A DNA stretch of 64,000 nucleotides from Candidatus Berkelbacteria bacterium (GCA_016432625.1 CP066697.1:151113-215112); one strand, 5' to 3'. Shown: positions 11,565 to 28,218, numbered from the stretch's first letter. The notes: generated by a model not told the origin, from the sequence alone. Numbers and translations are program-made.

Positions 11565-12209
11565 CTAGGGTCCAAAAATAATCACAAAGAATCCGAAGAG
11601 GCAGATGGCGATAACGCTCCACCCCATAAAGATTATCGGTAGGCGACGGCCAAGAACGGCCAGAACTGTTCCAGCTACATAGGCCGCGGCGATCAAAACC
11701 AGCGTCAAAATATTTGGCCCGCCTGTGGGTAACGGCTCAGCGGCAGCGGCTTGGAAGCCTTCGCTTGATGCGGCAGCGACTGTCAGGATGCCGCCGGCCA
11801 CGGTTAGCATGGCAGCCAAAGCGGCCTGAGATCGTGAGTAAAGACCAAGAGCTGCGGAGCTGCCGTTTTCGGCAAGCCAATTGTTGAACAGCGCTAACTG
11901 GCCGCGGGGGTAGAACGTGCCGCGGCAATCTGGGCAAGTCCACATCTTAAATCCGGTTGGCCCAGCGTCATGTTCGGATTGTTCTAGCAAAGTTTGGTCG
12001 CTAGGACAGAGGAGATTTATGCTCTGCAGCGAGTAATTAGGTTGGGCTTGGTCAATTTCTGAAACCGACGTAGCCGAAAGCCCTTCGTCAGTGCCGGAAT
12101 CAAACCAAACGCCGCCGCACTGTCCGCAACGGCGAGCCCTCCGGATGTCGCCACTTAGACTGCGAATGGAGACGGGCTCGAACTCGCCTTCGCATAACGG
12201 ACACTTCAT
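11565..12209 (-). CDS. Zinc-ribbon (double CxxC) protein with C-terminal TM helices, function unknown
   Basis: CPLC...CGQC and CPDC...C motifs, followed by a hydrophobic C-terminal region. Confidence 0.45.
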   Translation of the reverse strand: MKCPLCEGEFEPVSIRSLSGDIRRARRCGQCGGVWFDSGTDEGLSATSVSEIDQAQPNYSLQSINLLCPSDQTLLEQSEHDAGPTGFKMWTCPDCRGTFYPRGQLALFNNWLAENGSSAALGLYSRSQAALAAMLTVAGGILTVAAASSEGFQAAAAEPLPTGGPNILTLVLIAAAYVAGTVLAVLGRRLPIIFMGWSVIAICLFGFFVIIFGP

Positions 12210-13859: not shown

Positions 13860-14616
13860 AACTATTTTTGCGATTGCTCGAAACACATTCAAGGAAACAA
13901 TCCGCGACCGCGTTTTATATTCGTTAATCGGTTTTGCGGTTATCGTCATCGCCGCGAGTTTACTAGCGGCGTCGGTCTCGTTAGGCCAGGAAACGCGAGT
14001 AATTCAAAGTTTCGGCCTGACAGCGATGCTCGTTTTCCTACTCATAATTACTATTTTTATCGGTACCCAACTCGTCTGGCGGGAGGTCGAACGCAGGACC
14101 ATTTATATGGTGCTGTCGAAACCAGTCAGCCGCGAGGCATTTTACCTGGGCAAGTTCCTTGGCCTCTGCCTGACTATTCTGGTTGTCATGCTAATTATGG
14201 GCGCGGTGTTTGTGGCGCTGGTTGGTTATAAAACTAAAGCTGTCAGCGGCGTTCAAATTGCGGCGATCGTGATGATGATGGTCGAAGCCTGGCTGCTAAC
14301 CGCCGTTGGAATGTTATTTGCGAGTTTCACTTCGCCGCTTGCTAGCGCCGTTTACGCCTTCGCACTGGCGTTAATTGGGCATTCGGCAACCTCAATTTAT
14401 ATCATCGCCGCTAAATCGACTGGCTTTGCCAAATACATGTTAGAAGCGGTCTACTACGCTTTTCCGAATCTTGAAAAATTCAATCTGCGTAACGAAGTGA
14501 TTTTCAACGCGCCGCTAGACTTCAGTTATTTCTGGACGGCAATGCTATATTTTGTCGGCTATACCGCGGCGATGTTGCTACTAGGCATAGCCATCGTGCG
14601 CAAACATGAGTACTAA
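13852..14616 (+). CDS. ABC-2 family transporter permease
   Basis: 254 aa, ~6 TM helices, 8-nt overlap with the upstream ATPase gene. Confidence 0.7.
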   Translation: MLKTIFAIARNTFKETIRDRVLYSLIGFAVIVIAASLLAASVSLGQETRVIQSFGLTAMLVFLLIITIFIGTQLVWREVERRTIYMVLSKPVSREAFYLGKFLGLCLTILVVMLIMGAVFVALVGYKTKAVSGVQIAAIVMMMVEAWLLTAVGMLFASFTSPLASAVYAFALALIGHSATSIYIIAAKSTGFAKYMLEAVYYAFPNLEKFNLRNEVIFNAPLDFSYFWTAMLYFVGYTAAMLLLGIAIVRKHEY

Positions 14617-15454
14617 TTTTCTATTTCGCCGCCCAGCGCTACTGGCGCTCGTCTTTCTTGTCGTTGCGTACGCAGCGCAGATTTTTACGGACACACGGCG
14701 GTTTTACTCTAACCAGGGCAAGGTGGCGGTAAGCGCCAACATCTATATCGAACCGCAACCGCTATTCCCAGAAACAGCTAAGCTTGTTAGCTTTGGCGCC
14801 CGGGAATTCTTAGCCGATTGGTACTGGCTGAAGCTCATCCAATACTACGGCGGCGGCGACCCGCAGGGCAAATATCGTAAGCTCGGCGAGATGTTCAATG
14901 TCGTCACGGAATTATCACCGAAGTATTCTGCCGCTTACCAAACTGGCTTATTGGTCTTGCCGGGCGAAGGCTTTATTGATGAAGCGATCAAACTGGGTGA
15001 GAAAGGTCAGAAGAATTTACCAGATAAGTGGGAGATGCCGTACTACACCGGTATCGTTTACCACGTCTATAAAAAAGATTACGTTGCCGCTGCGAAAAAG
15101 TTTGACCAAGCCGCAGCGATCCCGGGAGCGCCGGAAACCACCAAGTTATTCGCGGCGATTTATTACAACAAAGCTGACGAACGACAAACCGCTTATCAGA
15201 TTTTCAAAACTGTTTACGAGACAAGCGACAGTGAATTTGCCAGGGACCGAGCCGAAAAATATGTCGAGCACCTCGACGTGTACTTTTTCCTTGAAGATGC
15301 AACCAAGAATTTCAAACAACGTTTTGGTCGCTACCCGGCAACGCTTGATGAGCTAGTGACTCGCGGCGTGATTAAAGAAATTCCTTCTAGCCCGCTCAGC
15401 GTGCCGTTTACAATCAACCCGGAGAACGGACAGATTAGCGAGTCAAAACGTTGA
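14606..15454 (+). CDS. Membrane-anchored hypothetical protein (TPR-like helical), co-operonic with the ABC-2 transporter
   Basis: 282 aa, N-terminal TM helix, overlaps the permease gene end by 11 nt. Confidence 0.5.
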   Translation: MSTNFLFRRPALLALVFLVVAYAAQIFTDTRRFYSNQGKVAVSANIYIEPQPLFPETAKLVSFGAREFLADWYWLKLIQYYGGGDPQGKYRKLGEMFNVVTELSPKYSAAYQTGLLVLPGEGFIDEAIKLGEKGQKNLPDKWEMPYYTGIVYHVYKKDYVAAAKKFDQAAAIPGAPETTKLFAAIYYNKADERQTAYQIFKTVYETSDSEFARDRAEKYVEHLDVYFFLEDATKNFKQRFGRYPATLDELVTRGVIKEIPSSPLSVPFTINPENGQISESKR

Positions 15455-16942: not shown

Positions 16943-17030
16943 TAAGGGTATTGTAGCAAACCATCGCTCGCGTACGCGGTACGGCTGCTTTTCTGGTTGG
17001 CTAAAATGTGGTTATGCTAAGAAAGCTATC

Positions 17031-18008
17031 ATGACAGATGTTTTAGTTATCGGTTCAGGTATGGCAGGGCTTTCAGCAGCGATTTACGCTGCTCGTTATA
17101 ATTTGGAAACGCTTGTTATTGGTCATGAGTTTGGCGGTGCCACCTCAACTGCTTGGACTATCGAGAACTATCCCGGCTACGTCTCAATCGATGGCTACGA
17201 CCTAATGATGAAGGTTAAAGAGCAGGCAGAAAAGACCGGCGCCAAGATTGTCACGGACCGAGTTATTAAACTCGAAAAGAAGAACGATCACTTCGTGGCT
17301 CAAACTTTTGAGGGCGAAATGTACGAAACTAAAACTATTATTCTTGCCTGTGGCGCGGCGCGAAAAAAAATGGGACTGGCACGTGAAGATGAGTTCGCAC
17401 TCGGAAAAGGCGTCCACTACTGCACTACCTGCGACGGCCCGCTCTACAAAGGCAAAACCGTCGCCGTAATCGGTAGCGGCGATTCGGCGGTCAAGGGTAT
17501 AAAGCTCGCCGTACAGTACGCTGAGAAAATTCACTGGCTAATCCGTGGTGAAGTTATTAAAGCCGAGCCGTTCAATTATGAAAAAGTTAAACACTACTTC
17601 GGCGACAAGATTATTGTTCACTACAACACGTCCATTACCGAGCTTTTGGGCGAGAAACGACTTAACGCCGTCAAGCTTAATACCGGTGAGACCCTAGAGC
17701 TTGATGGCTTGTTCGTTGAGATCGGCGCTCTTCCTGAAGTTGAGCTCGCTCACCACTTAGGCGCGGCGCTCGACGAGTTCGGTTTTATAAAAGTAGACAA
17801 CATGATGGAGACTAACGTTGATGGCATCTACGCTGCCGGCGACGTGACGAACTTTTTCGGCCACTTTAAGCAAGACATTACCGCCGCGGCAATGGGTTCA
17901 GTCGCCGCCACTAGCGCTTTTAAGCATATTCAACACGCCCCAACAGTCCAGGAGGCGAAAGCCACGCCCGCCGAGCAGCCATCAACGGTTAGTAATTTGA
18001 ATAAGTAG
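17031..18008 (+). CDS. trxB: Thioredoxin-disulfide reductase
   Basis: FAD motif VLVIGSGMAGLSAA; redox-active CTTCDG (CxxC); NADPH motif VAVIGSGDSAV. Confidence 0.85.
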   Translation: MTDVLVIGSGMAGLSAAIYAARYNLETLVIGHEFGGATSTAWTIENYPGYVSIDGYDLMMKVKEQAEKTGAKIVTDRVIKLEKKNDHFVAQTFEGEMYETKTIILACGAARKKMGLAREDEFALGKGVHYCTTCDGPLYKGKTVAVIGSGDSAVKGIKLAVQYAEKIHWLIRGEVIKAEPFNYEKVKHYFGDKIIVHYNTSITELLGEKRLNAVKLNTGETLELDGLFVEIGALPEVELAHHLGAALDEFGFIKVDNMMETNVDGIYAAGDVTNFFGHFKQDITAAAMGSVAATSAFKHIQHAPTVQEAKATPAEQPSTVSNLNK

Positions 18009-18117
18009 TGGGTCGGGTGGGGATTTCCTCCGCTGCGCTCCGGTATCCCCACCCTCTTGGCCAAGTGCAAAAACCGCCCATGAGGGCGGTCTCTGCATTG
18101 GTGGGTCGGGTGGGGAT
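18008..18117 (-). repeat. Two partial copies of the tRNA-Lys T-loop-to-3'-end segment (ATCCCCACCCGACCCAC) downstream of tRNA-Lys, each preceded by a related ~50-nt sequence; a rho-independent terminator lies between them at 18071..18096
   Basis: GTGGGTCGGGTGGGGAT occurs on the + strand at 18008-18024, 18101-18117 and 18235-18251 (the last inside the real tRNA). ACCGCCCTCATGGGCGGTTTTTTG reads as a terminator on the - strand. Confidence 0.7.
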
Positions 18118-18235
18118 CTCGCGCCTTCGGCGCTTGAAAGCTCCTTCGCTCACGCTCTGTCGCTATCGAACCCACTTCGTGCGTTCTCTCCCCACCACAA
18201 ACGAAAAAGCTGCCAAATGGCAGCGCTTCCGTTTG

Positions 18236-18307
18236 TGGGTCGGGTGGGGATCGAACCCACGACACACGGCTTAAAAGGCCGTTGTTCTACCACTGAACTA
18301 CCGACCC
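18236..18307 (-). tRNA. tRNA-Lys (anticodon TTT)
   Basis: GGGTCGG-TA-GTTCAGTGGTAGAAC-A-ACGGC-CTTTTAA-GCCGT-GTGTC-GTGGG-TTCGATC-CCCAC-CCGACCC-A. Confidence 0.85.
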
Positions 18308-18722
18308 TGAGCTCTGAGCGAGCGCAGGAGTGGAACCGGAAGGCGCGGAAAATGCTGTTATTTTTCGGCATTTGCAGCGCCGAGGGATTCCTTCAAGTTA
18401 TTTTACGGGAAACATGCCTTTTCCTCAATTAGGAAACGGATCAAGAAACGGTTGAGCTTTTGACAGTAGGTGCTATCATTGTTAGACCTTTGCGCTTCAA
18501 CGACGCAGTGCAAGGGAAATCGGAGGGTATCCAATCGTGTCATTTAATAGAAGCAATCTCGTCGCTCATGCGTCCAACAGGACGACCTTCTCCTTCAAGG
18601 GAGGGAACCGCCGACCGGCACCGAACTGCTCGCCTCTGAGCAATCAGCGTCGGCTGCAGAACATCAACGGCGGCAAACGCCAGCAGGCGAAGAAGTAGAG
18701 GCGAATCCGCTTCACACCAAAG

Positions 18723-18762
18723 AAAGGCCGGACACATCCGAGTGTCCGGCCTCTTCCTTATA
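18723..18762 (+). terminator. Rho-independent terminator-like hairpin (GGCCGGACAC...GTGTCCGGCC followed by a T-rich tract)
   Basis: Perfect 10-bp stem at 18726-18754, followed by TCTTCCTTATATTTT. Confidence 0.4.
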
Positions 18763-18771
18763 TTTTAATAT

Positions 18772-19302
18772 TTAGTAATCGGAAGAACTTCTTGATTTCC
18801 CAAGTCCACCTGTCGCAATGAGCGCGATAAGCGGCGCTATCATCCACCATGGGGTGTGGCTAATAAAAATCCGGGCGATTCGTGAGTTCTGGGCGAACTG
18901 ATCCCGCGCCGCCGGATCCATAAACGAGAAAATGGCGGTTAAAATTAAGGCTGAATTTAAAAAACTAAAAATCGCCAGCTCAAAAGCCGAGAGTGCGCCG
19001 CGACCGCTTGAGCCTTTGCCCATACCGGAGCGGATCGAGACCAGTACCGTCGTTAACAAGAATATTCCCGCTGAAATTGTAAAAGGCGAGGCGTTGGCTT
19101 TAATGAATAGCTGGTTGCCGATTGTTTTATCGCCTTGGAAGAACTGCTGCAGCGGCGCGCCCAACACCTGCGCCATCACGATACCGGCGTAAATCGCCAG
19201 TAACGTCACCACAACCTTATCGCGCTGCAACACGAAGCTGTAGCCGATCGAAACGATGAAAAATATTGCTAAAAACAGATCCCAGCTTGGTACGGTTTGC
19301 AC
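18772..19302 (-). CDS. Hypothetical integral membrane protein (4-5 TM helices)
   Basis: 176 aa, multiple hydrophobic helices. Confidence 0.5.
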   Translation of the reverse strand: MQTVPSWDLFLAIFFIVSIGYSFVLQRDKVVVTLLAIYAGIVMAQVLGAPLQQFFQGDKTIGNQLFIKANASPFTISAGIFLLTTVLVSIRSGMGKGSSGRGALSAFELAIFSFLNSALILTAIFSFMDPAARDQFAQNSRIARIFISHTPWWMIAPLIALIATGGLGKSRSSSDY

Positions 19303-19351
19303 TCTTCTTTCCCTCCGCTACTACTTTCTCTAGTTTCAGGAGGAGTGTCAA

Positions 19352-19957
19352 TTAGCGTTGCAGATTGCGGAGTTGCTCGTACAGATCACGTTCTTCGCGT
19401 GAGGGGCGCTTGGGGATTTCAATATGGATAACAACCGTCAAATCTCCCCGACCGCGGCGAGTTTGGGCGCCTTTGCCACGAAAACGAAAAGCCGCGCCTT
19501 CGGGTGTGCCGGGTGGAATCTTCAGCTCGATCTCATCGCCAAAATTGGTTTTGAAACGAACCGTGTCGCCAAGCACCGCTTGCGGGATCGAAACTGCCAA
19601 TTGAACCTGGACTTGAGAGAAGGCTGATTCGAACAAATCCTCAAAAATTGAGCCAAAACCTCCGCCGCCCTGACCACTAAAACTGCTGAAGTCGAAACCC
19701 CCAGCTTGACTCCCGAAACCGCTTTGGCTGCCAAAACCGGCTCCGGCCCGTGCCCCAGCGTGGCCGAACTGATCGTACTGGGCTCGTTTGTTTTTATCCC
19801 CCAGTACCTGGTAGGCCTCGTTTATTTCCTGGAACGCCGCCTTATCCCCACCTTTGTCGGGATGTAATTTGTGCGCTTTCGAACGGTAGGCCTTTTTAAT
19901 TTCGCCATCGCTGGCACCGCGGGGAACACCTAAAACTTCGTAAAAATCTCGAGCCAT
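19352..19957 (-). CDS. J-domain co-chaperone (DnaJ-like; J-domain plus Gly/Phe-rich region plus C-terminal domain, no zinc-finger)
   Basis: [35 protein letters not shown] with the HPD motif, then a GFGSQ-rich linker. Confidence 0.8.
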
Positions 19958-19982
19958 ATTTTCGATATTTTACCCTAAAAAT

Positions 19983-20000
19983 GTCAAGTTTGCTTTACAG
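19983..20000. promoter_or_regulatory. Copy of the 18-bp inverted repeat TGTCAAG-TTTG-CTTTACA (2 mismatches to TGTAAAG-N4-CTTTACA) in the divergent intergenic region between the J-domain gene and the ybjQ-like gene; overlaps a TTGACA -35-like hexamer (minus orientation) and sits just upstream of a TATAAT at 20001-20006
   Basis: Read directly: ...aaatgTCAAGtttgCTTTACAgagTATAATgaattcATG. Same half-sites as the dnaK promoter (26102-26119) and the XRE-Hsp20 gene promoter (51618-51635). Confidence 0.55.
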
Positions 20001-20014
20001 AGTATAATGAATTC

Positions 20015-20338
20015 ATGGATAAGGAAAATATTACAACCTCTTTTGAGCTACCGAATAAGAAAATTGTTAAAAATTTCGGCCTAGTCCGCGGCATAACCGT
20101 TCGCTCCCGATCGATTTTTGGGACAATCGGCGGCTCGCTGCAGACCATTCTTGGCGGCAATATCACCCTGTTTACCGAGCTGTGTGAGAAAACGCGCCAG
20201 GAAGCCTATGCCCTGATGGTCAAACACGCGGAAGAGATGGGCGCCAACGGCATTGTTATGGTTCGCTATGACGCCAACGAAGTTATGAGCGGTGTAACCG
20301 AAGTGCTCTGCTACGGCAGTGCAGTGGAGGTTGAATAA
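20015..20338 (+). CDS. YbjQ/UPF0145 family protein (heavy-metal-binding-like domain)
   Basis: 107 aa ending GANGIVMVRYDANEVMSGVTEVLCYGSAVEVE, the characteristic YbjQ C-terminal pattern. ATG only ~6 nt downstream of TATAAT, so possibly a leaderless transcript. Confidence 0.7.
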   Translation: MDKENITTSFELPNKKIVKNFGLVRGITVRSRSIFGTIGGSLQTILGGNITLFTELCEKTRQEAYALMVKHAEEMGANGIVMVRYDANEVMSGVTEVLCYGSAVEVE

Positions 20339-20565
20339 TGGACGAGGTAAAAAAAGTTAAAGTGAATATGCCTAGAGGCATTACGATCGTAAACCGTTAC
20401 AAAGGACCGGGCGGTGGCGCTTATTTCCTGGGTTTCCTAGGGGCTTTCATTTACTACATGCAAACGGCGGCTACTTTCGGCGATGGTGTTATCGGATTTC
20501 TAAAAGCCCTTGTCTGGCCGGCGTTTTTGGTTTATCACATCTATAAATTCTTGGGGCTCCAGTAG
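20338..20565 (+). CDS. Small membrane protein, translationally coupled to ybjQ-like (TAATGG overlap)
   Basis: 75 aa, two hydrophobic helices. Confidence 0.45.
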   Translation: MDEVKKVKVNMPRGITIVNRYKGPGGGAYFLGFLGAFIYYMQTAATFGDGVIGFLKALVWPAFLVYHIYKFLGLQ

Positions 20566-20574
20566 AATTTAGGC

Positions 20575-21240
20575 CTAAACCACCGATACCTCACCGTTTT
20601 CCACAACTAAATACGTTGCTACCGGGGGTTCGAATATCCCGGAATTTGCGAAATGGTTTTCCTTGTCAACGACTGCCAAATGGCTGTGAGCGCAAATTAG
20701 CCAGTGTTCTTTAGGCAAATTGGTGTTTTTCCAGGCAATCATCTTTTCGTTGTCCTTTCGGTAGATGTGTAAAAACGGCTTGCCGAAGTTTTGTATACAA
20801 AAGCGCTCAATTTTTACCGCGATCTCATAGAACCAGTAAAAATAGGCGATTCGAGGCAGGCGCATGTCTAAAGTCGGGGCAAGTTTGTCGCCATGGCGGA
20901 CATGGAACGTGACGCCGTTTTGAATAAAATCGTATTCGTTACTTGTCAAAACTGAAAACTCGTTCGTTCGCGAGTCATTTTTATATTCCCGGTCGTGGTT
21001 GCCGTAAAGGTAAACTGCCTCCTTGTTTTTGAATAAGCCAAAAAGCTTTCTCCAGTCGAAGGTTAGAAATTCTTCCAAAGTGTAAGCAAAACCTTCCCAA
21101 AGATCGCCGTTAATTATTAGCTTGTCAGCTGGACTCACGGCGCTATTAATTTGGGCGAATTTTATCTCGTTAAACTTTTTACCTAAATGTAAGTCGGAAA
21201 TTATTACCACCTTTTTCCCGCTGAGGTCTTCCGGTGTCAT
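20575..21240 (-). CDS. Calcineurin-like metallophosphoesterase
   Basis: SDLHLG, GDLWEG, GNHD and a later H motif. Classic metallophosphatase signature order. Confidence 0.7.
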   Translation of the reverse strand: MTPEDLSGKKVVIISDLHLGKKFNEIKFAQINSAVSPADKLIINGDLWEGFAYTLEEFLTFDWRKLFGLFKNKEAVYLYGNHDREYKNDSRTNEFSVLTSNEYDFIQNGVTFHVRHGDKLAPTLDMRLPRIAYFYWFYEIAVKIERFCIQNFGKPFLHIYRKDNEKMIAWKNTNLPKEHWLICAHSHLAVVDKENHFANSGIFEPPVATYLVVENGEVSVV

Positions 21241-21324
21241 TGCTTTGCAATTTTACTACAAAGCGGTCCAGCATAAGAGGAATGGGGAGGGTACAGGAAT
21301 CCGCCCGGCGAGTGCCGAGCGGAT

Positions 21325-21588
21325 CTAGTGCGGCCAAAGCACCCGATAGATAGTGATGCTGGCCATGACGACTGGGAAAACGATGCCAAAGAAAGCGATG
21401 AACTTTTTCAGGCCGTTGCTGTGGAAGTATGCCCTCCAGTAAACAACGAAGACGAAGACGTTGATCGCCAGCTGAATGACAGCGGCGATCTGGTTTGCTC
21501 CCTGGAAAACATGGGAGAAGTTGGCGATCAAGAAGAACGCGAACCCCATGCTTCCGGAGAGAATCATCCAGAACGTACTGTTTTTCAC
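21325..21588 (-). CDS. Small hypothetical membrane protein
   Basis: 87 aa, three hydrophobic segments, AT-rich region. Confidence 0.4.
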   Translation of the reverse strand: MKNSTFWMILSGSMGFAFFLIANFSHVFQGANQIAAVIQLAINVFVFVVYWRAYFHSNGLKKFIAFFGIVFPVVMASITIYRVLWPH

Positions 21589-22038
21589 TGCTATTCAACC
21601 TCCGAAGTCTGGTGGATTATATTCCTCAAACCTGTAAAAGTCAAGGATTGGGGCGGCTTTTTCTCGGGTATGCGAAAAGAAAAATAGAGAGCCTAATTAC
21701 CTTTTACTGCATAGAAAAGGAACTGAAGTATAACTTTTGGTTATTCTACAGCCAGTCTCTTTTTCGGCAAACTCACGAATCTCCGTTTCAAACGCTTTTC
21801 TTTTGGCCGTCTCTAACTGAGAGTTGGTCAGAGTACGTGTTACGGAGCTTGATATATTCATCAATCGTGTAGGCCCTCTGCCAATCACACTCCAACACAT
21901 CAACCAAATGGAAAAAATTATTTTCAAGTTTCGCTCTGCGCTCATCAATCTGCTCCCGCGAGCGAAGATCACGGATACCTAAGTATTTTTCATAGATTCC
22001 TTTCGCTCTCAGATGGAAAGAATCCAGTTTGGTTTCGA

Positions 22039-22530
22039 TTAACTCTCTATTTTTCCACCAAGAATTACGGGCGGTATCCAGAATTTCGTTGGCGTGAGTC
22101 CGTACACATTTGCCCTGGCATCTTCTTTCGGCCTGAGCGAAAAATCTTCTGTGACGCTTTCAAAAGTTCCTTTTGGGCATAATATTACTACCACCTTTGG
22201 CATAACGGCCGTGCCGAATTGAATCAACCTGTTCTGGTAGTGAGTCTTTGTCCAATAGAATAAAACTTCAAGGCCTTCACTCTTTTCTTGAAAGGCTTCC
22301 CAGAAGTGTTGAAAATCCATTTTATTGGTAATAAACCCAGAAATTTCTCGATCAATACCCTTGCACCTCAGCGAGATAGTGGCGTAGGGAACGTCTTTTA
22401 CCTTAGATATTACTTCGCCATTTTCAACCGTACTACCAAGCGGTCGGAGTTCGTTAGCTATACATAACTTGCTATCGATAACCGACCACTCATTATCTCT
22501 AAGTAGGACAACTTCTTCTGAGTTATTCAT
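22039..22530 (-). CDS. Hypothetical protein (AT-rich island)
   Basis: 163-aa ORF, no recognisable motif. Local GC noticeably lower than the window average. Confidence 0.4.
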   Translation of the reverse strand: MNNSEEVVLLRDNEWSVIDSKLCIANELRPLGSTVENGEVISKVKDVPYATISLRCKGIDREISGFITNKMDFQHFWEAFQEKSEGLEVLFYWTKTHYQNRLIQFGTAVMPKVVVILCPKGTFESVTEDFSLRPKEDARANVYGLTPTKFWIPPVILGGKIES

Positions 22531-22593
22531 AGCTGAATTTTACTACTTCCTGAATTGATTCAAAGAGAACTGCTCCCTATGCATGTGCCGTTC

Positions 22594-24000
22594 TTATTCT
22601 TTGAGACCCATCTCGGACCGTATATCGCTAATAAAAGTCTTCGCTTTCTCTTCAAGTATATTTTGATCGGGCCTGACACTTGCTAGGAACAACTCGAAAT
22701 ATTTTAGTGCCTTAACTAGGTCGCGCAACTTTTTATAGGCAATGTAGCCAAGCCAAAAATGCAGTTGATTCCTATCAGGATAAGTTTCAAGGAGATTCAA
22801 ACAAAACTGTTCAACCTCTTGGATGGTAAGCCATTCTTCGGAATACTCATGCTCAACAATTTTCCTCGAGGACTTATAAGCCTCGTCGTATTCCGATAAC
22901 CAATAATGCAAAAATGCATCGCTGTACCTCCACTCCTGGGCTCCATTAGCTAAGTTCTTCGCAAGCGCGATTTCTTGTTGCGCCGCCTTCGCATCACCTT
23001 CCTTGAATAGTTCCACGGCTCTTACTAGATGAAAACCGTACTGATTAGGGTAATAACTCTGTGCTCTTTTCGAAAACGTTGAGTACGACGCTAGGTCATC
23101 CTTCAGTAAAGACATTCGTGCTTTTAGCAAATAACTACCTGCCAATAATTGTTTGGCCTTGATCTTTACTTCCTCAATATTTGGAGGTAAATCATTTCTT
23201 TGAAAAAGCTTATCGTCAATTAGGCGCTCGTGGAGGGTTATTGCGAGGTTGACGTCACCAGATAAGAATGCAGCAATACCTACTATGTACTTTGCCGATA
23301 AATAAACAAAATCAGCGGTTAAGGCGAACCCTCTAAATCGGAATTCTTCTAACATCTCCACTTCTTTAGGTAGGGATCTTACAAAGTCGGCAGATAATTT
23401 AAACTGACTGTTTTTGTCTATCGGTGAGTGCACTACTAAACCACTTAAATCAATAAAAATCTTTTCCTTTTCTCCATCAGGACGTTTTTTAACGTCTCCG
23501 AAGACGAAATAGTGTCCATGGACTGTCTCATTTATTGTTCGCGCAATTTCATAGTTTTTTACTTTCTCGGCAATATGGTTGGGTACTTTTACTACTGTGA
23601 CTAACTCACTCAATCCATCTGCGACTAAGTTTTTTCTTACCTGGTCAAGAAAGTCCTTTTTAGCATCTATTTCCTCGAGGTTATCCTCGCTGTAAAGCGC
23701 GAAAACTAATCCAAGCTTCCCCTCGGGTATTTTTGGAAGCCACTTCCTTACTACTATCCAAGCAACTATCTCAATTAAGAGTAATACTACGAGGCCCCAT
23801 CTTAGATAACTGACTCCAAAAAGTTCTAAGAGGGGTTTATAGATAGCCGCAAATATAATGCCCGTTAACACTACCGTGACTAATAATCCGCGAAAACTTG
23901 CAAAGTTAATTCTGATGTATGACAAATAGGGTCGCAGTTTATCAATTGGCATCAGCCTATAAAGAAAGAGAGCTGATAGCTCTCTTTCTTGTTTCTCCAA
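22594..24000 (-). CDS. Hypothetical membrane protein: two N-terminal TM helices plus a large helical/TPR-like cytoplasmic domain
   Basis: 468 aa. TM segments at ~35-85. C-terminal helical repeats (…YWLSEYDEAYK…FWLGYIAYKKL…). AT-rich. Stop abuts the dnaK stop region. Confidence 0.5.
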   Translation of the reverse strand: MEKQERELSALFLYRLMPIDKLRPYLSYIRINFASFRGLLVTVVLTGIIFAAIYKPLLELFGVSYLRWGLVVLLLIEIVAWIVVRKWLPKIPEGKLGLVFALYSEDNLEEIDAKKDFLDQVRKNLVADGLSELVTVVKVPNHIAEKVKNYEIARTINETVHGHYFVFGDVKKRPDGEKEKIFIDLSGLVVHSPIDKNSQFKLSADFVRSLPKEVEMLEEFRFRGFALTADFVYLSAKYIVGIAAFLSGDVNLAITLHERLIDDKLFQRNDLPPNIEEVKIKAKQLLAGSYLLKARMSLLKDDLASYSTFSKRAQSYYPNQYGFHLVRAVELFKEGDAKAAQQEIALAKNLANGAQEWRYSDAFLHYWLSEYDEAYKSSRKIVEHEYSEEWLTIQEVEQFCLNLLETYPDRNQLHFWLGYIAYKKLRDLVKALKYFELFLASVRPDQNILEEKAKTFISDIRSEMGLKE

Positions 24001-26004
24001 TTAGTCTTTTTTGTCCCCGTCATCTTTTGGTTCTTCCGGCACATTTGTGTCCGGGGTGCCATCCGCCTTCGCCGAGGCTTCGTCGGATGAATCGTCTTTG
24101 GGGAGTTCTTCTTCCGGCTTCGGCTGTCCCTCCTGCGCTGAAGCTTCCTCCTTCGCAGATGCTTCGGAGGACGAGTCGGCGGGCGAGTCATACATCGCGG
24201 CGCCGACTTTTTGGAGGGCGGCACTCAATTTTTCCGCCTCCTCTTTGATTTTGTCTTTATCGTCGTTGTGGATGACGGCTTTGACGGCGGTAACGGCGTC
24301 TTCGACTTCGCGTTTGTCGTCCGGTTTGATCTTATCGCCCGCGTCTTTGAGGGTTTTTTCGCTCAAGTGAATAAGGTTTTCGGCGGCGTTTCGTTCTTCG
24401 ACCAGCTCTTTTTTCTTGGCGTCGTCGGCGGCGTGAGCCTCGGCCTCGGTTTTCATCTTTTCGATCTCTTCTTTGGATAGCCCACTCGAAGCCGTAATGG
24501 TGATGTGTTGTTCTTTGGAAGTGGCTTTGTCTTTGGCTTTGACGTTCAGAATTCCGTTTGCGTCGATGTCAAACGTCACCTCAACTTGCGGGACGCCGCG
24601 GGGAGCCGGTGGAATACCATCGAGATGGAACTTACCTAGCGTCCGGTTGTCGGAGGCCATTGGCCTTTCGCCTTGTAAGACGTGGATTTCCACAGATGGC
24701 TGGTTGTCGCTGGCCGTGGAAAACGTTTCCGTTTTTGAAGCGGGAATAGTGGTATTGCGCTCAATGAGCGGCGTCATTACTCCACCCAGAGTTTCGAGAC
24801 CCAAGGTTAGCGGGGTGACGTCGAGCAGAAGAATATCCTTAACTTCGCCTGATAAGACGCCGCCGTTAATGGCCGCGCCTAAAGCAACCGCTTCGTCGGG
24901 GTTAACGCCTTTCGATGGCTCTTTGCCAAAAACATCTTTAACAACTTGCTGAATCATCGGCATGCGGGTCATCCCACCGACCAAGATAACTTCGTCAATG
25001 TCAGATTTGGTGAGTTTGGCGTCTTTCAAAGCGGCTTCGCAGATGCCTCGGGTTTTCTTGATGAGGTCGCCAACTAAACTTTCCAATTTTGCGCGCGACA
25101 GATTCATCTGCAGGTTTTTTGGACCGTCAGCGTCAGCGGTAATAAACGGCAAGTTGATCTCGGCTTCCTGGGTTTGAGAGAGCTCGATCTTGGCTTTTTC
25201 AGCTGCTTCTTTGACCCGTTGCATAGCCATAGCGTCGCCAGTTAGATCGACACCCTCTTTGGCTTTGAATTCGTCGACGATCCAGTTCATCACTTGAATG
25301 TCGATGTCGTCTCCACCGAGGTGAGTATCACCGTTCGTCGAGAGCACTTCGAAGCTGGATTCGCCTTTGTCTTCGCCAATTTCGATGATGGTGATATCAA
25401 ATGTTCCACCACCAAAGTCGTAAACGGCGACTTTCTGGTCTTTTTTGTCTTCTTTGTTAATGCCGTAGGCGAGAGCCGCGGCGGTTGGTTCGTTGATAAT
25501 GCGCTTAACTTCGAGGCCAGCAATGGTGCCGGCGTCTTTGGTAGCCTGGCGCTGGGAGTCGTTAAAGTATGCCGGGACGGTAATAACAGCGCCGTCGACT
25601 TTTTCGCCGAGATAAGCCTCGGCATCAGCTTTGATTTTGGCCAGGATCATTGAGGAGATTTCTTGGGGGGTAGACTCGTTTTCGGCCATTTTGACCTTAA
25701 CGCCATCGCCGCTCTTTACAATTTTGTAAGGCATCAGTTTGATGTCGCGCTGAACTTCTTCGTCAGTGAAGCTACGACCCATTAAGCGTTTAACAGAGTA
25801 GATAGTATTTTCCGGATTGGTGACAGCTTGGCGCTTGGCGAGCGTGCCAACAAGGCGTTCGCCTTTTTTATTGACCGCGACGATGGACGGCACTAAGTTG
25901 CCGCCCTCAGCGGTTGGGATCATTTTGGCTTTACCGCTTTCGATGACGGCTGAAGCCGAGTTAGTTGTTCCCAGGTCAATTCCGATTATCTTAGACATTT
26001 GCAC
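24001..26004 (-). CDS. dnaK: Chaperone DnaK (Hsp70)
   Basis: [18 protein letters not shown], the substrate-binding domain, and an acidic/Lys-rich C-terminal tail. GTG start at 26004 (an ATG two codons in is possible). Confidence 0.95.
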
Positions 26005-26095
26005 CCCATTCTATGTCTGAGATATCCAAAACGGTGTTTTTGATAATCTTTCCCATTTTGAGTAAGCTCTCCTCCTTAATTAGTCTATGTCTAAA

Positions 26096-26127
26096 GAAAA
26101 TTGTAAAGTTTCCTTTACATTTGTCAA
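26096..26127 (-). promoter_or_regulatory. dnaK promoter: TTGACA(-35)-N16-TACAAT(-10), with the 18-bp inverted repeat TGTAAAG-GAAA-CTTTACA (26102..26119) occupying the spacer and -10
   Basis: Gene orientation: cATTGACAaaTGTAAAGgaaaCTTTACAATtttc. Perfect 7-bp arms. Not CIRCE (TTAGCACTC-N9-GAGTGCTAA) and not HAIR (CTTGAGT-N7-ACTCAAG). Confidence 0.6.
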
Positions 26128-26217: not shown

Positions 26218-26967
26218 ATGACCCTTCGAGAAACTTTACAATCCAATCGCCAACCCGACGTCGCCCTGGCGGACGACGTCGCCTTCGCCGTGATCGACTC
26301 GATCCGCCCGTTGATGGGCGCTGAACCACCTCCGGCTCGCGTCGACGGCGACCAAAGCCAACGGATGCGCTCCGCCCGCCTGGCCTACTTCATGCTTCGA
26401 GAACGAAGCGCGCACCTCGACACCTGTTTGCGCGTCATCGGTTCGGAAGAATTTCCGGTCGATGTACTCATTGCCGACTTGAAGGATGCCGAAAAGCGAC
26501 TTCATGCTCGGGCTCACAACGAGAACCAGACACTTAGTTGGCTGGGTCTTGCCGCTGTCGATTTCGATACGGTACTGATAGATGGGAACCAGCACGTCGA
26601 CTTCGACAAAGTCGTTTGTTACGGTTCCGCGACGCAAGAACAAGCCTTCTTTGGCACGATCGCCGGCCTGATGCCGCGACTGGCGTCCGAGGACAACACA
26701 AGCTTCACTAGTCACCTAGCAAAGTCTCTGTGCGCGGCCACGCGCCAGAAGCTCTGCAACGACTGGAACGGTACTGAGCTTTGTCTTGATGCCACGGCGT
26801 TCGGCTTCGCGCTGGGAACACGCGACCTGTATAGGCAGGCACAGACCCTGGCGTTCGAAAACAAGGAGCCGCTGCAACTGGATCATTTCGGCCGAGCAAA
26901 AGGCTGGGAGTCTCTCGCGCTTTTCGCGAGCTATCCGACGATCCGCGCCGCTATCCTGCCCAAATAA
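26218..26967 (+). CDS. Hypothetical protein (GC-rich), inserted between grpE and dnaK on the opposite strand
   Basis: 249-aa ORF followed by a hairpin plus T-run at ~26985-27020. No recognisable domain. Confidence 0.5.
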   Translation: MTLRETLQSNRQPDVALADDVAFAVIDSIRPLMGAEPPPARVDGDQSQRMRSARLAYFMLRERSAHLDTCLRVIGSEEFPVDVLIADLKDAEKRLHARAHNENQTLSWLGLAAVDFDTVLIDGNQHVDFDKVVCYGSATQEQAFFGTIAGLMPRLASEDNTSFTSHLAKSLCAATRQKLCNDWNGTELCLDATAFGFALGTRDLYRQAQTLAFENKEPLQLDHFGRAKGWESLALFASYPTIRAAILPK

Positions 26968-27106
26968 GGCCATGCCCTGACTGAAAGCCCCTCCTCCCAC
27001 CATAGAGGCGGGGCTTTTCACTATCCAAAAAAGTGCTCTAGCAACTGGATTTTCCCACTTTTTAAGATATAATTCGCACACGAACCTATCAGTTCAGGAG
27101 GCAGCT

Positions 27107-27658
27107 ATGCAGAAATTCACCCCGCTTGGCGGACCAATGCTTCAAGGCATTGAGATGCTAGCACGACAACACGGCCTTCGCGGCCAGTTCAGTATTCTCC
27201 TTGCCGTGCGAACGCAGGAAATGATTGCGGACCACGACGAGAGATGCAGCGGCTGGTCAGTAATGGCTAGCGCCCGCAAAGACGGGAAGATACTCATTTA
27301 CCCATGGATGTGGGAAAGGTTTCTTGAAGAGGACGTCGCGACTGCGGTTGGCTGGATGGCCAATACGCTCGCCGAGGAAATCGGGCATCTCATCGATTAC
27401 GAGCGGTTTCCGGCCTGGACGGAAAGCTTGCTGGATTGGCGGTTTCTGCTGATTCGCAATCTCCGAGACCGGCTCGGGAAATCGATCCCGCGCCTACAGC
27501 CGTCGCTCGTCAAGCTCTACGAATGGGCTTACAGGCGCAGCTTCTTTGAGAAAAGAGCGAAGCGCTTCGCCGAGGATCATGAAGAGCAGTACTTCGCTGC
27601 TATCTGGCCTCACTTCCACTACTACAGGGAGGTCTATCTCAACTTGTCACGGGAATGA
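27107..27658 (+). CDS. Hypothetical protein (GC-rich), second gene of the grpE/dnaK-intervening pair
   Basis: 183-aa ORF with upstream TATAAT and GGAGG RBS 6 nt before the ATG. No recognisable domain. Confidence 0.5.
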   Translation: MQKFTPLGGPMLQGIEMLARQHGLRGQFSILLAVRTQEMIADHDERCSGWSVMASARKDGKILIYPWMWERFLEEDVATAVGWMANTLAEEIGHLIDYERFPAWTESLLDWRFLLIRNLRDRLGKSIPRLQPSLVKLYEWAYRRSFFEKRAKRFAEDHEEQYFAAIWPHFHYYREVYLNLSRE

Positions 27659-27681: not shown

Positions 27682-28218
27682 TTACCCCTTTGAAACGCGG
27701 ACTTTGGCCGGTTTTATTACTTTGCCCTTAAGCATCCAGCCGGATTCAATTTCATCGATGACGGTTTCTGCTGGCAGGTCGCACGCTTCGTAGGAGATTG
27801 CTTCGTGCAAGTTATGATCGAAATGCGCCCCTTGGGTCGGAATGCGCGTCAGGCCGGCGTCGGCGACGATCGTTTCGAGCTGTTTTTCGATTTGGCGTAA
27901 ACCTTCAAAATAGGCGTGAATCTTTTGAAAAGCCTCTTCGCTTAAGGTTGTTTGGTCGTCGTCAAGTGAAATTGTCGGGGCGTGGGTTGAAGCGCGGTAG
28001 AAATTGTCCAGTACAGGGAAGAGTTTATGCAGCCAGTGGGCTAACGTCCGTTCCTCGAGCACGGCTCGGTCGTCGTGCATGCGCCGTTCTAGGTTAGAGT
28101 AATCCGCCGCCAAGCGTTTGCGACTGTTTTCGGCAGTTTCAAGTTTGGTCTTAATCTCGGCCAATTCTTTTTTGAGCTTATCGATTTCGTTGTCGTTTAA
28201 TTTCTTTTTAGGAGTCAT
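27682..28218 (-). CDS. grpE: Nucleotide exchange factor GrpE
   Basis: N-terminal coiled-coil (EIDKLKKELAEIKTKLE) and C-terminal FDHNLHEAISYE...GWMLKGKVIKPAKVRV, typical of GrpE. Confidence 0.85.
   Translation of the reverse strand: MTPKKKLNDNEIDKLKKELAEIKTKLETAENSRKRLAADYSNLERRMHDDRAVLEERTLAHWLHKLFPVLDNFYRASTHAPTISLDDDQTTLSEEAFQKIHAYFEGLRQIEKQLETIVADAGLTRIPTQGAHFDHNLHEAISYEACDLPAETVIDEIESGWMLKGKVIKPAKVRVSKG

Follow-up and report, generated by a model that had tools for sequence, protein, structure and literature searches.

A membrane-anchored TPR protein family associated with type I restriction-modification operons has an orphan member behind dnaK in a Candidatus Berkelbacteria genome

Introduction

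The gene for PrrC is embedded in a type IC restriction-modification (R-M) locus; the protein is kept latent by the R-M enzyme and is activated once a phage inhibits that enzyme (PMC1484252, PMC12707154). RloC, a relative of PrrC, is often unlinked from R-M (PMC3458546). Here we describe a family of uncharacterised proteins with a comparable genomic setting, starting from the gene for a 452-amino-acid (aa) protein beside dnaK in a stretch of 64,000 nucleotides (nt) from Candidatus Berkelbacteria (GCA_016432625.1, CP066697.1:151113-215112). We call this whole 64-kb stretch the window and count positions from its first letter.

The window is part of a 768,791-bp contig assembled from a metagenome, and an identical Logan contig exists. 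Candidatus Berkelbacteria belongs to the Candidate Phyla Radiation (CPR), the Patescibacteria. CRISPR is rare in these bacteria, which are believed to depend heavily on R-M. We found no relevant literature on TPR or membrane genes within operons for type I R-M, and no CPR defence survey that mentions such a gene. The original prediction for this DNA had flagged the block at 20000-24000 as one AT-richer, horizontally acquired accessory module, for example for defence or stress, with a possible regulatory link through a heat-shock operator-like site at its left border.

The 452-aa protein is a member of a large uncharacterised family that joins a transmembrane (TM) hairpin, an α/β domain and a TPR solenoid, and this family is strongly associated with type I R-M operons and other conflict genes. 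The copy in the window is an orphan member of the R-M-associated family. Its horizontal acquisition is well supported; a defence role, read from gene neighbourhoods, is a candidate function.

The family and its genomic neighbourhoods

A word-indexed search with the 452-aa protein returned 30 relatives with 29-44% identity, all about 445-460 aa long. When 1.84 billion cluster representatives were searched with a profile, 1,306 matched at E <= 1e-3 and 582 of these at E <= 1e-30, and their full-length architecture is alike. The family reaches beyond Patescibacteria, for example into Humimicrobiaceae. Publicly its members are named only 'hypothetical' or 'TPR repeat protein'.

The first four family genes that we looked up all lie in R-M or defence settings. 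Writing X for the family gene, the four orders are an integrase, X and Dcm-unknown-Vsr; hsdM-hsdS-X followed by a serine recombinase, with ThsB-TIR and a caspase nearby; hsdS-X-hsdR-YgjP (locus L006); and SMC-like-X-TIR. A metagenome scan added 22 further family loci, and the set of neighbours within three genes of the family gene comprises 93 proteins. Pfam recognises Methylase_S in 9 of these, ResIII in 8, N6_Mtase and HSDR_N in 6 each, N6_N4_Mtase in 4 and serine recombinase domains in 3, while PADLOC assigns 11 to the type I methyltransferase (MTase_I) and 10 to Specificity_I. Other family neighbours are DNA methyltransferases, TIR, SMC-like and PD-(D/E)XK genes, and recombinases.

By clustering of neighbours, co-directional type I R-M genes occur within three genes of the family gene at 11/22 loci. 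According to the coordinates of the open reading frames (ORFs), the family gene overlaps the adjacent R-M gene or is separated from it by at most 11 nt in 8 of those 11 loci. Type I subunits are found at 10/25 family loci (0.25 Mb) compared to 0/80 DnaK-centred loci (1.3 Mb; Fisher p = 1e-7), a comparison weakened by reference Hsd proteins that were drawn from the family loci themselves and by contigs that are short metagenomic fragments. Family genes are AT-richer than their own contig in 18/18 loci checked (GC 0.25-0.36 versus 0.29-0.41).

Some family genes lie beside genes of mobile elements. In L005, L099 and L104 a convergent serine recombinase and a conserved uncharacterised protein of ~135-165 aa follow directly downstream of the family gene. 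Two of the three modules (L005 and L099) contain a gene resembling the terminase large subunit, and an N4/N6 DNA methyltransferase belongs to those of L005 and L104; in L099 the methyltransferase position falls beyond the scanned genes. This arrangement suggests that the unit of R-M and family gene sits at the edge of an integrated element in these three genomes. Together with a tyrosine integrase upstream of the family gene in L003, it could also mean that the family is cargo that serves the element and not the host, as a superinfection exclusion, anti-defence or moron gene at the end of a prophage or integrative element. We consider this improbable. Most loci have no recombinase within 3 genes and the window has no mobility gene. 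Furthermore, the family has no relative in 2.9 million viral contigs (IMG/VR), no PHROGs match and no structural match in BFVD.

Predicted architecture of the 452-aa protein

No Pfam, NCBIfam, PADLOC or PHROGs model matches the N-terminal half of the 452-aa protein, and TPR models match weakly. Neither the full-length profile nor the domain profiles gave a significant match among PDB sequence profiles. The AlphaFold model (predicted local distance difference test, pLDDT, 84.8; predicted template modelling score, pTM, 0.71) consists of three parts: a hydrophobic two-helix hairpin at about residues 20-70, a four-stranded α/β domain at 80-195 and a 12-helix solenoid at 208-448. The predicted topology is a two-helix membrane anchor with cytoplasmic soluble domains. 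The solenoid is right-handed and built of tandem helix-turn-helix units, as in the TPR superfamily. The α/β domain does not conform to the TIR domain, a flavodoxin-like five-stranded fold with a catalytic Glu.

Polar positions conserved across the family are E93, D100, N125-H126, H147, K155-R157-D159 and H175-P177, together with the motifs EWRYSxAF and FWxG. They hint at a surface for specific binding or for catalysis.

The architecture bears on the main rival to an abortive-infection (guardian) role, an accessory for R-M housekeeping. Such a protein would tether or assemble type I complexes at the membrane, for example at DNA entry sites, or modulate restriction, without being toxic; the window copy would then be a stranded gene with no R-M partner. 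A TPR solenoid is a scaffold for protein binding, the predicted cytoplasmic soluble domains suit a tether, and we detected no effector-type domain in the 452-aa protein. The close operonic spacing, with the family gene between hsdS and hsdR or behind hsdM/hsdS, points the same way. However, about half of the loci, including the window, have no type I R-M gene, and members of the family also stand beside TIR and SMC-like genes or type II/IIG methyltransferases. A stand-alone gene that moves independently resembles an autonomous defence module more than a housekeeping subunit. We therefore rate the housekeeping accessory as unlikely.

A variable slot behind the dnaK terminator

On the minus strand the window reads grpE (27682-28218), two uncharacterised plus-strand genes, dnaK (24001-25998), the genes for the 452-aa protein, a 163-aa protein, an 87-aa protein and a metallophosphoesterase, then YbjQ and a 75-aa peptide on the plus strand, followed by dnaJ (19352-19957) and a CvpA-like gene. 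dnaK is annotated as HSP70 and has its true start at ATG 25998. The short dnaJ encodes 201 aa with Pfam DnaJ and DnaJ_C but without the zinc-finger region. Thus the flagged block interrupts the dnaK-dnaJ operon.

To compare this arrangement with that of relatives, we scanned the species representatives of GTDB with DnaK as seed, which yielded 80 loci. The two closest are L009 (90% DnaK identity to the window) and L010 (82%); L011 and L012 (65-68%) are more distant. In L011 and L012 the order is grpE-dnaK-dnaJ-cvpA, presumably the ancestral one, with only 120-720 bp from dnaK to dnaJ. The gene order of L010 matches that of the window from comEC through grpE-dnaK and then again for the 75-aa gene, dnaJ (73% identity to the product of the short dnaJ), cvpA, tRNA-Lys and trxB to IPPT. 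Its nucleotide homology to the window starts at 25998, the dnaK start, and resumes on the dnaJ side at 19998. In between, L010 carries a different 2.6 kb with a HEPN protein, a GC-rich 287-aa ORF and an M23 peptidase. L009 carries at least 10 kb of other genes, including HNH-WYL, HNH, PIN and PD-(D/E)XK. For the 452-aa, 163/247-aa (see below), 87-aa and metallophosphoesterase proteins there is no tblastn match in the sister loci of the DnaK scan. Both closest sisters thus lack the dnaK-proximal genes and hold unrelated cargo at the same junction, in line with the original prediction.

The dnaK-side junction can be placed precisely. A terminator-like hairpin with a perfect 13-bp stem follows dnaK (23962-23990, minus strand; -20.1 kcal/mol, z = -4.2) and is the last element conserved with the sister genomes. 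The dnaK 3' end with the hairpin (24071-23963) is 88% identical to L009 13946-14055, and there homology stops. According to a four-way alignment, the dnaK stop is followed in the window, L009 and L010 alike by a stable hairpin (-17.8 to -32.8 kcal/mol), 8-10 nt and the ATG of an unrelated gene. Since homology ends at the hairpin and the next genes are unrelated, a hypervariable cargo slot lies directly behind the dnaK terminator. It starts about 10 nt past the hairpin and ends at the convergent 75-aa gene (~20,566-23,962).

In L009, a 62-nt direct repeat of the dnaK 3' end with 95% identity (11843-11904 and 13930-13991) flanks a 2.1-kb insertion, which looks like an insertion scar with target duplication. 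The insertion carries a 181-aa and a 453-aa ORF, the latter fused in frame to the displaced DnaK tail, and has no integrase inside.

In the window, no integrase or recombinase gene is present in 19-27 kb. The dnaK 3' end is not repeated in 17,000-23,999, and repeats within the window do not exceed chance level. That is, both marks of an integrative genomic island, an integrase or recombinase and flanking att repeats, are missing from the window. Because the window has neither an integrase nor a flanking repeat, cargo may be exchanged by homologous recombination in the conserved flanks and not by site-specific integration.

In other Patescibacteria the dnaK-dnaJ gap measures 0.6-4.6 kb and has miscellaneous content (GH1, LytR, proteins of no assigned function). 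Hence the slot is not defence-specific in general. This weakens the view of the gap as a site reserved for defence genes throughout Patescibacteria.

Composition of the block

The GC content of 20001-24000 is 0.431, the lowest of any 4-kb window in the 64 kb. Compared to the other non-overlapping 4-kb windows (mean 0.5075, sd 0.012) this corresponds to z = -6.2, which confirms the lower GC that had been noticed for the block. At 24000/24001, the dnaK stop codon, GC jumps sharply from 0.38 to 0.58.

GC content at third codon positions (GC3) reveals a patchwork within the dip. Across the 64 other ORFs in the window, GC3 averages 0.570 (sd 0.056). The 452-aa gene (GC3 0.40, z = -3.0; total GC 0.40) and the 163-aa gene (GC3 0.42, z = -2.65) have the lowest GC3 among the real genes of the window. 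By contrast, GC3 is native-like in YbjQ (0.58), the 75-aa gene (0.51), the metallophosphoesterase (0.52) and the 87-aa membrane ORF (0.75); the low total GC of the metallophosphoesterase is due to its GC2 of 0.30. The compositionally foreign segment is thus limited to about 21,600-23,962. The block is not the single island that the original prediction saw: its dnaK-proximal part (~21.6-24.0 kb) is deviant in GC3, whereas YbjQ and the 75-aa gene are native in composition and the 75-aa gene is syntenic in L010.

Likewise, the claim of an acquired module holds for the dnaK-proximal ~2.4 kb, deviant in GC3 and absent from L009 and L010, but not for the remainder of the 4 kb. We infer with high confidence that this 2.4-kb part of the slot was acquired horizontally from a donor of lower GC. 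It would be partly ameliorated, because its GC of 0.40 is intermediate between that of typical family genes and that of the host.

The window copy is an orphan beside dnaK

No Hsd homolog, and thus no R-M partner, lies within the 64-kb window. Between dnaK and the 452-aa gene there is no sigma-70-like promoter. As the gene has no recognisable promoter of its own, any expression would come by read-through from dnaK.

The adjacency to dnaK reflects an insertion hotspot and not a chaperone function; the 452-aa gene lies beside dnaK because the hotspot is there. The alternative is that the membrane TPR protein is a co-chaperone or adaptor of DnaK (Hsp70) that is co-transcribed with it as part of a stress module. 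TPR domains of Hop, CHIP and Tom70 bind the tails of Hsp70 and Hsp90, and it was matches of the Hop/CHIP type together with the position next to dnaK that prompted this reading. We find it hardly credible. None of the 25 other family loci adjoins dnaK, the sister genomes hold unrelated genes at the identical junction, and GC3 marks the 452-aa gene as foreign. The TPR matches are generic, as APC, OGT, PilW and designed TPRs score equally high, and the profile match to Hop TPR2A is not significant (E = 0.3-0.6). The window DnaK ends in ...GDKKD and not in EEVD. Hence the protein shows neither the EEVD-type partner tail nor the genomic or functional linkage of an Hsp70/Hsp90 co-chaperone. With a hotspot that explains the adjacency, generic TPR matches, a Hop match that is not significant and no EEVD, the co-chaperone reading is disfavoured.

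A heat-shock operator-like site had also been proposed at the left border of the block. The HrcA/CIRCE operator (TTAGCACTC-N9-GAGTGCTAA) has zero matches with up to 3 mismatches in the whole 64-kb window, and the left border contains only promoter-like hexamers, for dnaJ and ybjQ. The proposed operator is therefore not confirmed, and a stress or regulatory link to dnaK, which no other family locus adjoins, is unsupported.

The window copy could also be a decaying remnant of an older island that is unexpressed or non-functional. The adjacent gene is frameshifted, the 452-aa gene has neither R-M partner nor promoter, and its GC of 0.40, between family (0.25-0.36) and host (0.50), suggests long residence. 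Yet the 452-aa frame is intact and retains every residue that is invariant across 18 homologs, and the sequence is identical in three assemblies. A locally inert remnant has, in our judgement, a low probability.

Genes of the block

The 452-aa gene occupies 22594-23952 on the minus strand. Its start is ATG 23952, in agreement with homologs and with the annotation of the National Center for Biotechnology Information (NCBI). The 468-aa ORF of the original prediction begins at a TTG that abuts the dnaK stop, and its extra 16 codons cross the perfect 13-bp hairpin.

The 163-aa ORFan (22039-22530, minus strand) is the 5' part of a frameshift-truncated 247-aa gene. An A5 homopolymer lies at 22050-22054 (minus strand). 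One additional A would restore the 247-aa reading frame, and an out-of-frame continuation of 86 helical-looking codons follows (21788-22048, minus strand). The A5 version is identical in three assemblies, including L001 and L002, and could be either a fixed pseudogene or a phase-variable switch. The 163-aa ORF and the reconstructed 247-aa form have no homolog but themselves among 5.8 billion proteins, the product matches no Pfam, NCBIfam, PADLOC or PHROGs model, and the reconstructed form gives nothing at E <= 1 by tblastn against the 111 fetched loci. A 91-aa ORF (21697-21972) is an out-of-frame artefact, since with one more A in the A5 run the 163-aa frame carries through to 247 aa.

The 87-aa ORF (21325-21588, minus strand), also inside the variable slot, encodes a predicted membrane protein with three helices. 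It has a near-consensus promoter (TTGACT-17-TATAAT, 21616-21644) and a GGAGG ribosome-binding site (RBS). On the opposite strand the public annotation has a 119-aa acidic ORF (21328-21687, plus strand). Because of the promoter, the GGAGG and the GC3 of 0.75 of the 87-aa ORF, this call is probably an antisense shadow and the annotation chose the wrong strand.

The last gene of the slot encodes a calcineurin-like metallophosphoesterase of 221 aa (20575-21240, minus strand; PF00149, 31 bits compared to a cut-off of 21.5). It falls below the cut-offs of PdeM (27.7 versus 150) and YfcE (18.7 versus 56) and is a member of neither. It has a weak generic PADLOC match (PDC-S10, 17.4 bits). It is absent from the L009 and L010 slots and has no tblastn match in any fetched locus.

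The right edge of the slot is formed by the resident 75-aa membrane peptide (20338-20565, plus strand). It is conserved in L010 (53% identity to 14505-14732), in the same position and orientation relative to dnaJ. Neither this peptide nor the 87-aa protein has a Pfam, NCBIfam, PADLOC or PHROGs match. Next to it lies a YbjQ-family protein (20015-20338, plus strand; PF01906, E = 1.3e-27), which matches over its full length (96.8 bits versus a cut-off of 23, profile positions 3-103 of 103) and has no counterpart in the L010 locus. Apart from the shortened 468-aa protein and the 91-aa artefact, the genes named in the original prediction (YbjQ, metallophosphoesterase, 75-aa and 87-aa) stand.

Other features of the dnaK operon

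The same operon has a second variable slot between grpE and dnaK (26218-27658, plus strand). In the window it contains two GC-rich ORFans of 249 and 183 aa (GC 0.58 and 0.55; GC3 about 0.67), neither with a Pfam or PHROGs match. The gap is 76 nt in L010, and L009 has a different filler of 780 bp.

The C-terminal tail of DnaK (24001-24200, minus strand) is longer than in L009 and L010, with extra segments including 'SSDEASAKA', and its DNA contains internal 17-nt direct repeats (24067-24083 and 24151-24167). The expanded, repeat-bearing tail indicates that the dnaK 3' end is unstable beside the cargo slot.

At the other end of dnaK, the interval from the conserved promoter to the ATG of dnaK contains an upstream ORF of 21 codons with a strong AAGGAGG RBS (25991-26056, minus strand). 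The stop codon of this ORF overlaps the start of dnaK (AATGTCTAA), and its first five residues copy the N-terminus of the relatives' DnaK (MGKII...). About 64 nt at this position are missing from L010. The ORF may encode a leader peptide, or it may have arisen by duplication of part of the dnaK 5' end.

Finally, a perfect 13-nt inverted repeat is found at 26100-26112 and 26230-26242 (ATTGTAAAGTTTC / GAAACTTTACAAT). One arm shares positions with the -10 hexamer of the dnaK promoter, and the second is situated immediately within the 5' end of the divergent gene for the 249-aa protein. The repeat could be an operator or a junction relic.

Discussion

We regard the following explanation, taken as a whole, as somewhat probable: the dnaK-proximal genes are foreign cargo of the slot, the 452-aa protein represents a family of R-M-linked defence accessories, and the copy in the window is an orphan. 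The family would follow the 'R-M guardian' logic of PrrC. The TPR solenoid would bind another protein, namely the R-M complex or an anti-restriction factor of a phage. The membrane hairpin would mediate the output, as an abortive-infection response or by localising the complex. A membrane-acting architecture would thus replace the nuclease of PrrC.

Several observations weigh against this explanation. About half of the family loci show no R-M gene, and three distant members have other neighbours: RHS; HATPase_c_3 with a type IIG methyltransferase; and htpG, to which the family gene is convergent. The α/β domain has no recognisable catalytic or ligand-binding fold and no structural match, so the effector step is conjecture. 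With PADLOC-DB v2.0.0, the 452-, 163-, 87- and 75-aa proteins and YbjQ have no match at E <= 1. Hence the case for defence is guilt by association: the neighbourhoods of the family elsewhere speak for the defence-type module once proposed here, and the products at 22039-24000, none with a PADLOC match, do not. In the window itself the R-M partner, a mobility gene and att-type repeats are missing, and the ORFan next to the 452-aa gene is broken; the local copy may thus have no activity. Elsewhere in Patescibacteria the dnaK-dnaJ gap holds non-defence cargo.

A bolder version of this explanation is possible but doubtful. The ~1,300 clusters (at 50% identity) would form a widespread, undescribed class of guardians or accessories coupled to type I R-M, in which a membrane TPR sensor with a new α/β domain watches over the R-M complex or over anti-restriction proteins of phages and acts at the membrane; the logic would be that of PrrC, the architecture wholly different and without a nuclease. 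Separately, conflict cargo in Berkelbacteria would repeatedly insert at the flank of dnaK next to its terminator.

If the explanation is right, an abundant unannotated family in type I R-M operons is a missing piece of CPR phage resistance and a new example of accessory proteins that back up R-M. As the family lies outside the models of Pfam, NCBIfam and PADLOC, present censuses of defence genes overlook it. A further lesson of the locus is that even a core heat-shock operon can contain a hypervariable slot, which opens here at a fixed point past the dnaK terminator. The slot is a useful marker for strain-specific genes in metagenome-assembled genomes, and the window is a caution against deducing what a gene does from its position next to dnaK. 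Of all these results, we value most the abundant membrane-TPR family that had no annotation and is tied to type I R-M, a candidate defence accessory.

Comparison with known systems

The slot resembles islands at the 3' ends of conserved genes, such as tRNA and tmRNA hotspots, in its fixed start after a terminator and in cargo that differs among close relatives. The 62-nt target repeat that flanks the insertion in L009 is a further likeness. In contrast to these islands, the target is dnaK and not a tRNA, and the window has no integrase or flanking repeat.

Among TPR scaffold proteins (Pfam TPR clan; Hop/STI1, PilW/PilF, MamA, APC) the N-terminal 200 residues of the 452-aa protein have no counterpart, and the EWRYSxAF and FWxG motifs of the family are not generic TPR signatures. 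The N-terminal TM hairpin with a cytoplasmic sensing or binding domain is shared with single-gene membrane-anchored defence and abortive-infection proteins, such as the two-TM effectors of CBASS and Pycsar and other candidates with TM segments in defence islands. Alike are also the location in defence islands, the AT-richness and the patchy distribution of the family. Unlike CBASS or Pycsar-type effectors, the 452-aa protein has no cyclic-nucleotide-binding or known sensor domain and no PADLOC match, and the family's partner genes are R-M and not a cyclase.

The closest likeness in genomic setting is to PrrC and RloC. As in these systems, a single accessory gene lies inside a type I R-M operon, and in the hsdS-X-hsdR order of L006 it takes the position of prrC in ecoprrI (PMC12707154, PMC1484252). 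As for RloC, members also occur without linkage to R-M (PMC3458546). Linkage to a type I R-M locus is present for the family (11/22 loci) and absent for the window copy. The proteins themselves differ. We found no similarity in sequence or fold between the 452-aa protein and PrrC or RloC, and according to Pfam and NCBIfam the ABC-type NTPase and the anticodon nuclease are both absent; two TM helices, an α/β domain and TPRs stand in their place. On domain content the family is thus excluded from the PrrC family, and the likeness to PrrC would be one of logic only: an accessory gene placed within the R-M operon that it may guard.

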